This document shows positions 21,189 through 23,836 of a stretch of DNA of 24,475 nucleotides, in pieces; within the stretch, counting starts at the first letter, position 1, and the number at the start of each line of letters is the position of its first letter. The position numbers were made by a program, and so were the translations under genes. The stretch is from Oscillospiraceae bacterium (GTDB lineage Bacteria > Bacillota > Clostridia > Oscillospirales > Acutalibacteraceae): the NCBI GenBank assembly GCA_031547365.1, contig JAVBSB010000052.1, positions 1-24,475 on the forward strand, in the 5' to 3' direction. The notes beneath the pieces are model-generated. The model was not told where the DNA came from, did no database searches, and was given only the letters and a program-made list of their open reading frames with translations.

Positions 21189-21217
21189 TTGACAAACCGT
21201 GTTATATCAGTTAAGAT
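21189..21217 (+). promoter_or_regulatory. SigA-type promoter of the sigma factor gene with an upstream A-tract (UP-like)
   Basis: TTGACA (21189-21194), 17 bp, TAAGAT (21212-21217). A-rich tract at about 21161-21183. Confidence 0.75.
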
Positions 21218-21251: not shown

Positions 21252-21821
21252 ATGGATTTGTCGGCATGCAGTGATGAAGCCCTGGTTGGGGTGATCCAGC
21301 GCGGCGACAACAGCGCCGAAGCGTTCGGTCTGCTGCTTGAGCGCACGCTGCCGGTGATTCATGCCCGGGTGGATTATGCGCTGCGGCGCACAAAAAGTGG
21401 CGTTCTTTGCTCGCGCGAGGATTTATTTCAAGAGGGTATGCTCGCATTTCTCAGCGCTGTTTCGTCTTTTCAGTCAAATCGCGGCGCAAGCTTTCGCACG
21501 TATGTCGGCGTCTGCGTAAACCATCGTGTCATATCCGCATTGCGGCGCAACCTTAAGGCATGGGAAGAATCGCTGCCCGACGATTGCCTGATTCCCGGCG
21601 CGCGGGGGATGGATCCGCAGGATATTTTTTCCGCTATGGAGGAAACCCGCCGTATTATGGAGGTTATGCAGTCGCAGCTGAGTAAATTGGAACGCAACGT
21701 AATCGAGAGCTACCTGGCGGGCGAACGGTATGATGCGATTGCGCAAAGGCTGGGCGTGCAGCCAAAAACAGTGGACAACGCCTTGCAGCGGGTACGGAAA
21801 AAGCTGCGTAAATATTTATAA
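21252..21821 (+). CDS. sigH: SigH-like sigma-70 family RNA polymerase sigma factor
   Basis: EDLFQEGMLAF, ASFRTY, LSKLERNV and the SigH-type KTVDNALQRVRKKL. Start ATG 21252. Confidence 0.8.
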   Translation: MDLSACSDEALVGVIQRGDNSAEAFGLLLERTLPVIHARVDYALRRTKSGVLCSREDLFQEGMLAFLSAVSSFQSNRGASFRTYVGVCVNHRVISALRRNLKAWEESLPDDCLIPGARGMDPQDIFSAMEETRRIMEVMQSQLSKLERNVIESYLAGERYDAIAQRLGVQPKTVDNALQRVRKKLRKYL

Positions 21822-21824
21822 TTT

Positions 21825-21884
21825 GCCCCACTAGCTTAAAGAAAGCGGTGAAACCACAGAGACGGTGCGATTCCGTCGGGGGTG
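21825..21884 (+). ncRNA. tRNA-like structured element with a truncated anticodon arm (putative)
   Basis: GCCCCAC-TA-GCTT(AAAGA)AAGC-GG(TGAAA)CC-ACAGA-GACGG(TGCGATT)CCGTC-GGGGGTG. Perfect 4-bp D-like stem and 5-bp/7-nt T-arm, imperfect acceptor-like stem. Confidence 0.5.
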
Positions 21885-21918
21885 TAAAAAATTTTTTTCA
21901 AGCGAGGTAGATCAGCAC

Positions 21919-22206
21919 ATGTACGAAGACAAAAATCTCATCTGCAAGGAATGCGGAAACGAATTCATTTTCACCGCCGGTGAACAGGAATTCTATGCGG
22001 AAAAAGGCTTCGAGAACGAACCCGGTCGCTGCAAAGACTGCCGGGAAGCACGCAAGCGCGGCGGAAACCGCGGCGGCGAGCGCGAAATGTTCGAGGCAAC
22101 TTGCGCATCCTGCGGCGGAATCGCCCGCCTTCCTTTCCGTCCGCGTGAAGATGGACGGCCCGTGTATTGCAGCGATTGCTATGCGCGGCAGAAGGAGAAT
22201 GGATAA
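21919..22206 (+). CDS. Zinc-ribbon protein (zf-trcl-like + CxxC-x17-CxxC-like domain)
   Basis: MYEDKNLICKECGNEFIFTAGEQEFYAEKGFENEPGRCKDC and MFEATCASCG...PVYCSDC give four CxxC pairs. RBS GAGGT. Confidence 0.9.
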   Translation: MYEDKNLICKECGNEFIFTAGEQEFYAEKGFENEPGRCKDCREARKRGGNRGGEREMFEATCASCGGIARLPFRPREDGRPVYCSDCYARQKENG

Positions 22207-22259: not shown

Positions 22260-22293
22260 ACAACCCTTCGATGAAAATCGGGGGGTTGTTTTT
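22260..22293 (+). terminator. Intrinsic terminator after the zinc-ribbon gene
   Basis: ACAACCCTTCGA (22260-22271) / TCGGGGGGTTGT (22278-22289) followed by TTTT. Confidence 0.7.
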
Positions 22294-22294
22294 C

Positions 22295-22323
22295 TTGACA
22301 TGGCGGCGAAAAAGCGCTATAAT
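22295..22323 (+). promoter_or_regulatory. Consensus SigA promoter of scfAB
   Basis: TTGACA (22295-22300), 17 bp, TATAAT (22318-22323). Confidence 0.88.
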
Positions 22324-22358: not shown

Positions 22359-22508
22359 ATGCAACGTATCCAAACTGTCGAAACCCGCGACCTGCGCGAG
22401 AGCCTTTGCGGCGGCGGCTGCGGCGAATGCCAGACCTCCTGCCAATCGGCGAGCAAGACTTCCTGCGGCGTGGCGAATCAACCCTGCGAAAACAAAGACG
22501 CGGAATGA
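22359..22508 (+). CDS. scfA: SCIFF ranthipeptide precursor (variant)
   Basis: Not in the ORF track. Manual translation: MQRIQTVETRDLRESLCGGGCGECQTSCQSASKTSCGVANQPCENKDAE. The stop overlaps the scfB start (ATGA). Confidence 0.93.
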   Translation: MQRIQTVETRDLRESLCGGGCGECQTSCQSASKTSCGVANQPCENKDAE

Positions 22509-23836
22509 TTCACGCCTACCAGCTCCACGGCAGCCGCATCATACTGGATGTGAACAGCGGGTCGGTGCATATCACCGACCCGGTGGCTTTCTATGCGATC
22601 ACGCATTGGGGGCTGACGCAGGCAGATCTGCAGGCGCAATTTCCCGGGGAAGATTTGCAGGGCTTGTTCAAGGATATTCAGGCGCTGATCGACGCGGGAA
22701 AGCTGTTTGCGCCCGAAATAGAATTTACCGAGAGCACCGCGAGGCGAGGAACCCCGCCACAGGTGATAAAGGCGCTGTGCCTGCACGTGTCGCATACCTG
22801 CAACCTTACATGTGATTATTGCTTTGCGCAAGCGGGGCGTTATCACGGTGCGCAGGCGCTGATGTCCTATGAAGTTGGCAGGCGTGCGCTGGATTTTTTG
22901 ATTGCGCATTCCGGCACACACAAAAACCTGGAGGTTGATTTTTTTGGCGGCGAGCCGTTGATGAACTGGCAGGTTGTGAAGGATTTAGTTGCCTATGCGC
23001 GCGAAATCGAGGGCAAGGCAGATAAGAATTTCCGCTTTACACTCACCACCAACGGCTTGTTGCTCGACGACGACGTGATTGCCTTTGCCAACGAAGAGAT
23101 GTCCAACGTGGTGCTGAGCCTGGACGGCCGCAAAGAAATCCACGACAGCCTGCGCCGTACGGTCAACGGCAAAGGCAGCTATGATTTAATACTGCCGAAG
23201 TTTCAGCAGTTTGTGCAGGCGCGCAAGGGCAAAAATTATTATATGCGTGGTACTTTTACGCACAACAACCCCGATTTTACGCAGGATTTATATCACATGG
23301 CGCAGCAGGGCTTCCGCTCGCTCTCAATGGAGCCTGTGGTCTGTGCGCCCGGCAGCGCATACGCCCTGACGCAAGAGGACATCGCCGTTGTGCTGCGGGA
23401 ATATGAAGCGCTTGCCCTGGAAATGTCGAAACGCAAGGGGACAAAAGAAGAATTTAGTTTTTATCACTACAATTTGGATTTAAAGCACGGACCGTGCATC
23501 TACAAGCGCATCGCGGGCTGCGGCAGCGGCACGAACTATCTTGCCGTTACGCCCGCAGGCGAATTATATCCCTGCCATCAGTTTGTCGGCGAAACAGAAG
23601 CATGCATGGGCGACGTTTGGCAGGGCATTACCCGTCCGCAACTCTATGAGGCTTTTGCCGCGAATACCCTGCAATCGAAGCCGGAATGTCGGGACTGTTG
23701 GGCAAAATATTACTGCGCCGGCGGCTGTGCCGCAAACGCTTATCATGCCTGCGGCTCAATTCAGGGCATTTACGCCGATGGCTGTACGCTCTTTAAAAAG
23801 CGTATGGAGTGCGCAATCTGGCTTGCCAGCCAATAA
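22505..23836 (+). CDS. scfB: Thioether cross-link-forming SCIFF peptide maturase (radical SAM/SPASM)
   Basis: MIHAYQLHGSRIILDVNSGSVH, KALCLHVSHTCNLTCDYCFA, VDFFGGEP, and SPASM cysteines CGSG..YPC..CRDC..CAGGC. True start is 22505, not 22241. Confidence 0.95.
   Translation: MIHAYQLHGSRIILDVNSGSVHITDPVAFYAITHWGLTQADLQAQFPGEDLQGLFKDIQALIDAGKLFAPEIEFTESTARRGTPPQVIKALCLHVSHTCNLTCDYCFAQAGRYHGAQALMSYEVGRRALDFLIAHSGTHKNLEVDFFGGEPLMNWQVVKDLVAYAREIEGKADKNFRFTLTTNGLLLDDDVIAFANEEMSNVVLSLDGRKEIHDSLRRTVNGKGSYDLILPKFQQFVQARKGKNYYMRGTFTHNNPDFTQDLYHMAQQGFRSLSMEPVVCAPGSAYALTQEDIAVVLREYEALALEMSKRKGTKEEFSFYHYNLDLKHGPCIYKRIAGCGSGTNYLAVTPAGELYPCHQFVGETEACMGDVWQGITRPQLYEAFAANTLQSKPECRDCWAKYYCAGGCAANAYHACGSIQGIYADGCTLFKKRMECAIWLASQ

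Follow-up and report, generated by a model that had tools for sequence, protein, structure and literature searches.

A predicted tRNA-like leader element without an anticodon arm is conserved upstream of a zinc-finger gene in gut Clostridia

The DNA analysed here, to which we refer as the window, is a stretch of 24,475 nucleotides from an Oscillospiraceae bacterium (assembly GCA_031547365.1, contig JAVBSB010000052.1, positions 1 to 24,475 of the forward strand). Within it, a SigH-like gene of the sigma-70 family, of the sporulation type, is followed on the same strand by a gene for a small zinc-finger protein, and the interval between the two contains a 61-base element, at 21825-21885 of the + strand, that can be drawn as a tRNA-like cloverleaf (Table 1). 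The reading frame of the sigma gene is open from 21189, and the best NCBIfam matches of its product are SigH models, which it matches below their cut-off (98.8 vs 208 bits). A consensus scan placed a promoter-like site upstream of the sigma gene and detected no further one until 22295; the upstream site is likely the start of a transcript that carries the sigma gene, the tRNA-like element and the zinc-finger gene. The same scan revealed no promoter or terminator signal separating the two genes, and no promoter-like site between the sigma gene and the element, as an earlier reading made from the sequence only had claimed. The sigma gene, the element and the zinc-finger gene read as a single operon. 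A TATAAT sequence resembling a -10 box at 21817-21822 was considered as a promoter and rejected, as it has no -35 box and transcription from it would start within the acceptor stem of the element. Downstream of the hairpin that ends the operon, the next gene has a perfect promoter of its own.

Table 1. Coordinates of the features of the sigma factor, tRNA-like element and zinc-finger gene region in the window.
Feature	Position	Strand	Basis
Promoter-like site TTGACA-17-TAAGAT upstream of the sigma gene	21189-21217	+	Consensus scan, 10/12 matches
SigH-like sigma-70 family gene, 189 aa from ATG 21252	21252-21821	+	Pfam Sigma70_r2, Sigma70_r4_2
Leader bases -2/-1 (UU)	21823-21824	+	Sequence; U at -1 in 54/66 aligned elements
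Acceptor stem, 5' strand, GCCCCAC	21825-21831	+	MFE fold; model alignment; acceptor pairs covary at 6/7 positions in the family
U8-A9 (21832-21833), D arm GCUU/AAAGA/AAGC (stem 21834-37 with 21843-46), G26	21832-21847	+	Sequence, MFE fold, model alignment
Stub hairpin GUG-AAAC-CAC, no anticodon loop	21848-21857	+	MFE fold, model alignment
Variable region AGA	21858-21860	+	cmsearch alignment; family consensus AGGU, window copy one base shorter
T arm: stem GACGG/CCGUC (21861-65 with 21873-77), 7-nt T-loop UGCGAUU (21866-72; U54, G55, C56, G57, A58)	21861-21877	+	
Acceptor stem, 3' strand, GGGGGUG (21878-84), and discriminator-equivalent U21885, no CCA after it	21878-21885	+	
A/U-rich 33-nt spacer with conserved AAGCGAGGU Shine-Dalgarno block at 21900-21908	21886-21918	+	
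Zinc-finger gene, 95 aa, two CxxC...CxxC domains	21919-22206	+	Pfam zf_Tbcl PF13451 (1.9e-25), zf_Tbcl_2 PF23477 (6.7e-17)
Intrinsic-terminator-like hairpin, 13 pairs then TTTTCTT, operon end	22260-22289	+	Consensus scan

The sigma gene stops with TAA (21819-21821), three T residues follow, and G21825 is the first base of the element. From this base the cloverleaf runs through an acceptor stem, a 4-bp D stem, a 3-bp stub that replaces the anticodon arm and a perfect T arm. The stub has a 3-bp stem and a 4-nt loop in the window copy, compared with the 5-bp stem and the 7-nt anticodon-bearing loop of a tRNA; the D loop, AAAGA, has no GG, and the acceptor stem is followed by UAAAAAA without a CCA. 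The sequence-only reading had described an element that begins 3 nt past the sigma stop codon, with U8-A9, a 4-bp D stem, a minimal hairpin and a T arm, and without the D-loop GG and the CCA, all of which we confirmed from the sequence; its variable region, given there as 5 nt, is 3 nt long. When the window copy was aligned to a covariance model built from elements outside its genus, the pairs 1:72, 2:71 and 6:67 were non-standard in the register of the family, and its MFE fold slips by one base in the acceptor stem, which leaves 5 pairs. The window copy is a somewhat eroded member of the family described below. The MFE fold of the 60-mer is exactly the cloverleaf (-19.8 kcal/mol), with an energy no better than chance (z = -1.61; 15 of 200 shuffles were equally stable), and with longer flanks the predicted fold differs (z = -0.07). 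Taken alone, the window copy could be a product of chance, and the case for a real element rests on comparison.

The zinc-finger protein was found in 36 of 41 genomes in a protein search of relatives, and 80 named loci were gathered from isolates and metagenome-assembled genomes of Oscillospirales. Within the 260 nt that precede the zinc-finger gene, one block is conserved, approximately GCCCnnGUAGCUUAA..AGAGCGUUG..CAAAGGUGKCGGUGCRAWUCCGYCCnnGGGCA, which is followed by the ribosome-binding block AAGCGAGG, and the remaining intergenic DNA around the conserved block varies freely in length and sequence. From a plain MAFFT alignment of 18 copies, RNAalifold recovered the same four helices unaided, with double changes in 11 of 15 pairs. 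With 66 copies from orthologous loci aligned on a covariance model (R1), 89.7% of cells were in standard pairs, versus 27-54.5% with slid partners, and both sides had changed in 14 of 19 pairs; none of 500 shuffles matched these values. Compensatory changes were present in all four helices. To avoid circularity, a second model (R2) was built from 55 elements, all of them outside the genus of the window. With filters off, R2 matched 21823-21887 on the + strand at 47.4 bits (E = 7.9e-15), against 8.7 bits for the next best match in the window, and this was the top score of the whole assembly, in which real tRNAs reached 33 bits. A covariation analysis upstream of PF13451-type genes was among the checks that the sequence-only reading had proposed, and it yielded a conserved structure with covariation. 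These results indicate a real element whose conservation, with compensatory base changes, extends over many gut Clostridia.

The individual arms are constrained to different degrees. The D stem is paired in 99.6% of cases over 65 distinct sequences and carries a U13-G22 wobble in 54 of them; since this wobble is frequent, the + strand is taken to be the RNA strand. All three pairs of the stub covary (UUG/CAA, GUG/CAC, GCG/CGC), and inserts of up to ~70 nt are tolerated there. In the T arm, U54 of the loop is retained in 64, G55 in 56, R57 in 66 and A58 in 65 of the 66 copies, pair 50:64 covaries between G-C and A-U, and G53-C61 is retained in the family, while pairs 5:68, 6:67 and 50:64 are frequently mismatched. 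Since position 55 is a G and the D loop is without GG in 63 of 66 copies, the elbow of the element may differ from that of a real tRNA. At the acceptor end, G1-C72 is found in 51 of 65 sequences and pair 3:70 is C-G in 56 of 65, U-G in 5, U-A in 4 and never G-U; the discriminator base is not fixed (A 31, C 17, G 11, U 7), and none of the 66 copies has a CCA. No conserved identity element, G3-U70 or other, was found in the aligned family.

We then compared the element with known RNA families. A search of the window against Rfam gave nothing at the gathering threshold and nothing tRNA-like at E <= 10, with only a chance snoRNA match (E = 4), and ARAGORN called neither a tRNA nor a tmRNA in the window. 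ARAGORN likewise found no tRNA at the element in 28 relatives; at one locus (L164) it made a single 'tRNA-???' call with a 4-base anticodon. When the Rfam tRNA model RF00005 was applied to 20 orthologous loci, 7 scored 35-47 bits, above the threshold of 29 bits. As RF00005 matches orthologues, we consider the element to be tRNA-derived, yet no tRNA: it shares the acceptor, D and T arms with RF00005, but is without the anticodon stem-loop, G18G19 and CCA, and has a G at 55. The tRNA-likeness claimed from the sequence is supported. A match to a known Rfam family and a simple decayed tRNA had been named beforehand as findings that would speak against a new element. The former was obtained for orthologues only, with the tRNA model, and the latter was not borne out, because the compensatory changes indicate selection on the fold.

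To trace its origin, the 66 elements were compared with all 59 tRNAs of one complete genome of the same order. tRNA-Phe(GAA) was the best match for 43 of the 66 elements, with a mean score of 13.2, compared with 9.2 for Arg(CCT) and 8.2 for Thr(UGU), so that tRNA-Thr is not favoured as an ancestor. By covariance-model score, the nearest real tRNAs were Gly(CCC), Arg(CCT) and Phe. tRNA-Phe is the closest match of the tRNA comparison, and only modestly so.

The element occurs in one copy per genome, and the other R1 and R2 matches in the genome of the window are real tRNAs. In a class-wide sample of whole genomes, all 11 matches of at least 48 bits lay directly upstream of the zinc-finger gene, as did all nine checkable strong matches of an order-wide scan, which were just upstream of it. 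Two complete genomes of the same order (G026 and G037) have neither the zinc-finger gene nor the element. Position 73 and the ATG are separated by a median of 30 nt, and by 24-40 nt in 63 of 66 loci; the first 20 nt of this spacer are 76% A+U, and the AAGCGAGG block is found in 49 of 66 loci. The sigma gene lies just upstream, with no good promoter in between, in 53 of the 66 loci. The sigma gene is missing from the other 13, and in 10 of these a sigma-70 promoter with at least 10/12 matches, perfect in five cases, is placed 12-70 nt before G1; in these 10 loci G1 has a 5' leader in front of it, and a tRNA-like end would require its trimming. Since the element stays with the zinc-finger gene whichever promoter is upstream, it belongs to the leader of that gene, and the tie to the zinc-finger gene that had been suggested from the sequence holds with either the sigma gene or a separate promoter upstream. 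Taken together, the matches place the element in a large proportion of the gut Oscillospirales (Ruminococcaceae, Acutalibacteraceae, Oscillospiraceae) and in other Clostridia; cultured strains that carry it include Ruminococcus flavefaciens YL228 (L100) and Ruminococcus sp. JL13D9 (L112).

In other orders, the positional orthologue of the sigma gene qualifies as a bona fide SigH, with 396 bits vs the cut-off of 208, and homologues of yacO and yacP precede it. The element recurs there, at times at full tRNA size and with an A/U-rich 'anticodon' loop (L135, L146, L164). Four loci in other orders have a real tRNA-Gly(CCC) between sigH and the zinc-finger gene. At L148, L157 and L164 this tRNA lies 5-50 nt upstream of the element, in an arrangement resembling a tRNA operon, and at L143 it is accompanied by a mere short hairpin at the place of the element. 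Where zinc-finger orthologues in other families are without the element, its place is taken by a raiA RNA, by a tRNA-Gly on its own or by a plain promoter leader.

The N-terminal domain of the zinc-finger protein is almost invariant across Clostridia, and a basic linker and two zinc knuckles are present in the protein. Its AlphaFold model is confident (pLDDT 84.5) but had no match in the PDB below E = 1e-3 with Foldseek, a sequence search of the PDB returned nothing informative, and neither fold nor sequence gave a match suggestive of RNA binding. A weak Methanosarcina ribosome entry was followed and rejected, as it leads to CBS-domain proteins, the Sri hibernation factors, that are unrelated to the zinc-finger protein. 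Small proteins of the archaeon M. mazei with a related domain bind zinc (PMC12704099), and we found no paper on the function of PF13451 beyond this. In other families, a raiA RNA motif was located 37-117 nt upstream of the zinc-finger gene in 8 of 19 raiA-bearing genomes sampled; raiA RNA (RF03072) had no match in the window, and the papers on raiA make no mention of an association with this gene (PMC10861870, PMC11706538). The zinc-finger gene is recurrently found behind abundant structured RNAs, namely the tRNA-like element, tRNA-Gly(CCC) and raiA RNA.

Most likely, the element serves the zinc-finger message as a signal for its processing and stabilisation. In the specific model that we favour, and to which we give a little less than an even chance, RNase P would cut at G1 and part the sigma and zinc-finger messages, and the element would stay on the zinc-finger mRNA as a base-paired stabilising cap. 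RNase P would read the element as a pre-tRNA and cut just 5' of G21825, severing the sigma message from the zinc-finger message. The element would then remain attached to the downstream message, because it is without a CCA and no RNase Z was found in three complete genomes of the order. The zinc-finger mRNA would begin, ~30 nt before its start codon, with a paired, flush end that bears a 5' monophosphate, and this paired end would shield it from 5'-end-dependent decay, so that the level of the zinc-finger protein would be uncoupled from that of the sigma factor. We infer these three steps, cleavage by RNase P, retention on the mRNA and stabilisation.

The anatomy of the element is consistent with the first of these steps. 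The determinants read by RNase P are kept, including the stack of ~12 bp formed by the 7-nt acceptor and the 5-bp T stem, both supported by covariation, the T-loop bases U54, R57 and A58, the pair G1-C72 (51 of 65 sequences), and a U at -1, which bacterial RNase P prefers in this position. In loci with tRNA-Gly(CCC), the element also occupies the place of a second tRNA. Of the RNase P/Z processing proposed in the sequence-only reading, the RNase P half fits this anatomy, with its stack, its T-loop and, in 54 of 66 copies, its U at -1, whereas the RNase Z half is unlikely in this order. A search with TIGR02651 (E <= 1e-10) did not find RNase Z in the complete genomes G033, G063 and G103, nor in the 69%-complete assembly of the window, while in the control the same model was detected in 13 of 14 reference genomes. 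In addition, 58 of the 59 real tRNA genes of genome G033 encode their CCA. As RNase Z was not found and nearly all of these tRNA genes encode CCA, no clean cut would be expected at the 3' side of the element.

Several observations count against the RNase P model. The non-standard pairs 1:72 and 2:71 of the window copy flank the putative cleavage site, pairs 5:68, 6:67 and 50:64 are frequently mismatched in the family, and with a G at 55 and no GG in the D loop the elbow may not be that of a real tRNA. The exclusive linkage to the zinc-finger gene and the 24-40 nt spacing fit a translational operator equally well. Zinc-finger genes with a strong promoter of their own have nothing to uncouple, and the element persists there, where it would be explained by the stabilising half of the model only. 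Lastly, orthologous zinc-finger genes in other families do without the element.

Message-marking and message-protecting tRNA mimics have been described in plant mitochondria, in viruses and in mammalian long non-coding RNAs, and we regard the element as a bacterial variant of the tRNA mimics that are used as mRNA processing or stability elements. In the t-elements of plant mitochondria and the tRNA punctuation model, a tRNA-shaped, non-decoding structure in an mRNA precursor is read by tRNA-processing nucleases and sets message ends. The element resembles t-elements in its non-decoding tRNA shape within an mRNA precursor, where cleavage is putative; t-elements are organellar and use both RNase P and RNase Z, whereas the element belongs to a free-living bacterium in which RNase Z was not found, and accompanies a single gene family, with a fixed distance to the start codon. 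mascRNA and MEN-beta, of MALAT1 and NEAT1, are likewise non-decoding tRNA mimics that are cut by RNase P and set the end of a longer transcript. They are eukaryotic, form the 3' end of long non-coding RNAs and are released as small RNAs to which CCA is added, while the element lies on the 5' side of a coding region. In the thrU-tyrU-glyT-thrT-tufB operon of Escherichia coli, and with RNase P cuts in polycistronic mRNAs, tRNA units are co-transcribed with a protein gene, RNase P separates them, and the resulting parts differ in stability. A tRNA-shaped unit co-transcribed with a protein gene is shared with the element, but the units of that operon are functional tRNAs, whereas the element has no anticodon arm and is apparently kept for its shape alone. 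The tRNA-like domain of tmRNA, which is bound by SmpB and recognised by alanyl-tRNA synthetase via G3-U70, and the tRNA-like module of the bacterial Y RNA YrlA, which is bound by Rsr, are parts of free-standing RNAs with dedicated partners. Both have in common with the element an elbow of acceptor and T arm and no normal anticodon arm; the element, in contrast, lies in cis in an mRNA leader, its pair 3:70 is never G-U, and it received no tmRNA call. In Firmicutes, the 5'-terminal stem-loops of the ermC and aprE leaders stabilise their mRNAs. The idea of a 5'-end structure that protects an mRNA from 5'-end-dependent decay, which we propose for the element, is the same; these leaders are simple hairpins at a primary transcription start, whereas the element has a full tRNA-like fold and an end putatively made by RNase P.

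Rfam release 15 holds no dedicated family for the element, and in the searchable literature we found no paper linking a tRNA-like element to sigH or to the zinc-finger gene. A conserved, gene-specific, anticodon-less tRNA-like leader of this kind therefore appears to be undescribed, as none was found for free-living bacteria in Rfam or in the literature. If the RNase P model is true, the element would be an example from nature in which RNase P shapes how a protein operon is expressed, would show a route by which a dead tRNA gene can be recycled into an mRNA element, and would open a way to study a small zinc protein, uncharacterised and very conserved, that is encoded beside sigH. It would also be a warning to annotators, as the Rfam tRNA model scores some copies of the element that are not tRNAs.

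The features that fit a translational operator also make up the strongest case for an alternative to the RNase P model. Under this explanation, the element, lying 10-15 nt before the Shine-Dalgarno block, would be bound by the zinc-finger protein itself, in autoregulation, or by a tRNA-binding protein, and the bound protein would hinder or help the binding of the 30S subunit; the action of ThrRS on the thrS leader is a model for control of this type. Linkage to the zinc-finger gene is exclusive in every context, the ATG is kept at a narrow range of distances (median 30 nt), the neighbouring AAGCGAGG block is unusually conserved, and the protein, with its basic linker and two zinc knuckles, could be a ligand. 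Against this, the protein is nearly invariant across Clostridia, yet many lineages swap the element for a raiA RNA, a promoter leader or a bare tRNA-Gly; no match in fold or sequence indicates RNA binding by the protein; and no conserved alternative pairing that would hide the Shine-Dalgarno block, as in a riboswitch, was seen. The sole candidate for such a pairing, 4 bp between GCUU of the D stem and AAGC of the Shine-Dalgarno block, is not backed by covariation, and the D-stem variants of three loci (L005, L006 and L020) are unmatched in AAGC. We consider an operator unlikely, if far from negligible.

A related explanation starts from the protein. Stable structured RNAs may have a dedicated partner in the zinc-finger protein, with the element as the RNA half of a new ribonucleoprotein or autoregulatory pair, whether in cis or released. 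This would explain why a nearly invariant gene lies directly behind a tRNA mimic, a tRNA-Gly(CCC) or a raiA RNA, and raiA RNA is, to our knowledge, an orphan with no protein partner. We give this explanation a fairly small chance.

Since the same processing determinants would serve both, cleavage by RNase P could also lead to a released small RNA rather than to a capped message. In this case, the 5' cut by RNase P would be followed by an endonuclease cut in the A/U-rich spacer, whose composition makes it a plausible target, and by exonuclease trimming, to yield a trans-acting RNA of ~60-70 nt, possibly in complex with the zinc-finger protein in the manner of tmRNA with SmpB or YrlA with Rsr; the repeated position of the zinc-finger gene just behind stable RNAs (the element, tRNA-Gly(CCC), and raiA RNA in 8 of 19 genomes) agrees with such a pairing. 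The prospects of this reading are slim, as the element has no CCA and a variable discriminator base, carries neither G3-U70 nor any other conserved identity element, and is never found away from the zinc-finger gene, although trans-acting RNAs are usually free to move; a fixed distance to the start codon would also be needless for action in trans.

A neutral relic, that is, a decaying tRNA pseudogene without function between two genes, would account for the Rfam tRNA matches of the orthologues and for the degraded state of the window copy, with its acceptor-end mismatches and no RF00005 match at E = 10. It would not account for the retention of the element across many families of the order and in other orders of the class, nor for compensatory changes in four helices while the flanking intergenic DNA varies freely. 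With no comparable pairing in the slid-partner controls, covariation brings the neutral relic close to refuted, and we hold it to be very improbable.

It is equally hard to credit that the acceptor stem and the A6U7 run behind it form a terminator or attenuator of the sigma gene that stops or modulates transcription before the zinc-finger gene: a UUUUUUU tract does follow the structure in the window (21892-21898), and 22 of 66 loci have a run of at least 5 T within 25 nt, but the tract begins 8 nt after the stem in the window and is directly adjacent to it in only 9 of 66 loci, for which reason we do not regard the element as a terminator, and the consensus scan called no + strand terminator at the element, placing a terminator-like hairpin behind the zinc-finger gene instead, at 22260-22289.

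The tRNA-like element located 5' of the zinc-finger gene (zf_Tbcl, PF13451) varies in size and architecture. In one family it has the full size of a tRNA (75–78 nt), with an anticodon-like stem of 5–6 bp and an A/U-rich loop of 7–10 nt that, in the copies at loci L164, L135 and L146, carries no conserved anticodon; ARAGORN reported the L164 copy as 'tRNA-???' with a 4-base anticodon. Three species of the window's genus possess a minihelix-like version consisting only of the acceptor stem and T arm, lacking the D arm and stub hairpin and scoring 20–22 bits with the covariance model of the element (R1). In L016, a complete element is preceded by two partial copies in tandem (~62 nt), which correspond to its 5' half, namely the 5' acceptor strand and the D-arm-like hairpin. 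Four loci of other orders contain a genuine tRNA-Gly(CCC) flanked by sigH and the zinc-finger gene. The tRNA-like element lies 5–50 nt downstream of this tRNA in L148, L157 and L164, and its position in L143 is occupied by a short hairpin only.

Coordinates of features in the window and in loci around the zinc-finger gene of relatives (L) or sampled genomes (G)
Feature	Location	Strand
tRNA-Gly(CCC)	L143:325-398	-
tRNA-Gly(CCC)	L148:387-460	-
tRNA-Gly(CCC)	L157:888-961	+
tRNA-Gly(CCC)	L164:383-456	-
Full-size element	L164:299-376	-
Full-size element	L135:152-228	+
Full-size element	L146:304-378	-
Minihelix-like version	L012:1126-1168	+
Minihelix-like version	L013:1424-1469	+
Minihelix-like version	L014:1810-1867	-
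Tandem partial copies and complete element	L016, about 1270-1403	+
raiA motif and zinc-finger gene	L132, L133, L136, L144, L162	
raiA motif and zinc-finger gene	G182, G212, G222, G245, G254, G281, G283, G308	
Ribosome-binding block	window 21900-21908	
Perfect sigma-70 consensus promoter, TTGACA-17-TATAAT	window 22295-22323	+
Radical SAM / SPASM gene	window about 22508-23836	

Within the alignment of element copies (A3), mismatches were found at pairs 5:68 (38/65 sequences), 6:67 (24/65) and 50:64 (27/65), and the adjacent pairs show clean covariation; these three pairs may form a conserved internal loop or recognition feature. Most aligned copies also spell a three-codon frame, AUG-CCC-NNG-UAG, from A(-2), U(-1) and G1 together with U8, A9 and G10. 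The frame probably arises incidentally from bases conserved in tRNAs and from the leader preference of RNase P. The window copy (21823–21834) has UU before G1 and lacks the frame. The ribosome-binding block AAGCGAGG(U), present in 49 of 66 loci, is conserved across the order well past the plain GAGG core and reads AAAGYGAGGGGA in other orders. No pairing partner was identified for AAGCGAGG(U).

No match to RNase Z (TIGR02651) was detected in the complete same-order genomes G033, G063 and G103. As CCA is also encoded in 58 of the 59 tRNA genes of G033, these sequence data suggest that tRNA 3' maturation in these Oscillospirales is purely exonucleolytic.

Three further families of Clostridia carry the raiA RNA motif (RF03072, 162–186 bits) 5' of the zinc-finger gene on the same strand, its 3' end 37–117 nt from the gene; this arrangement occurs in 8 of the 19 sampled genomes with raiA. 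The publications PMC10861870 and PMC11706538 on this RNA give comFC and raiA as its neighbours and name no protein partner. In the window, the sigma-70 promoter lies directly 3' of the operon's terminator, with the radical SAM / SPASM gene downstream of it.
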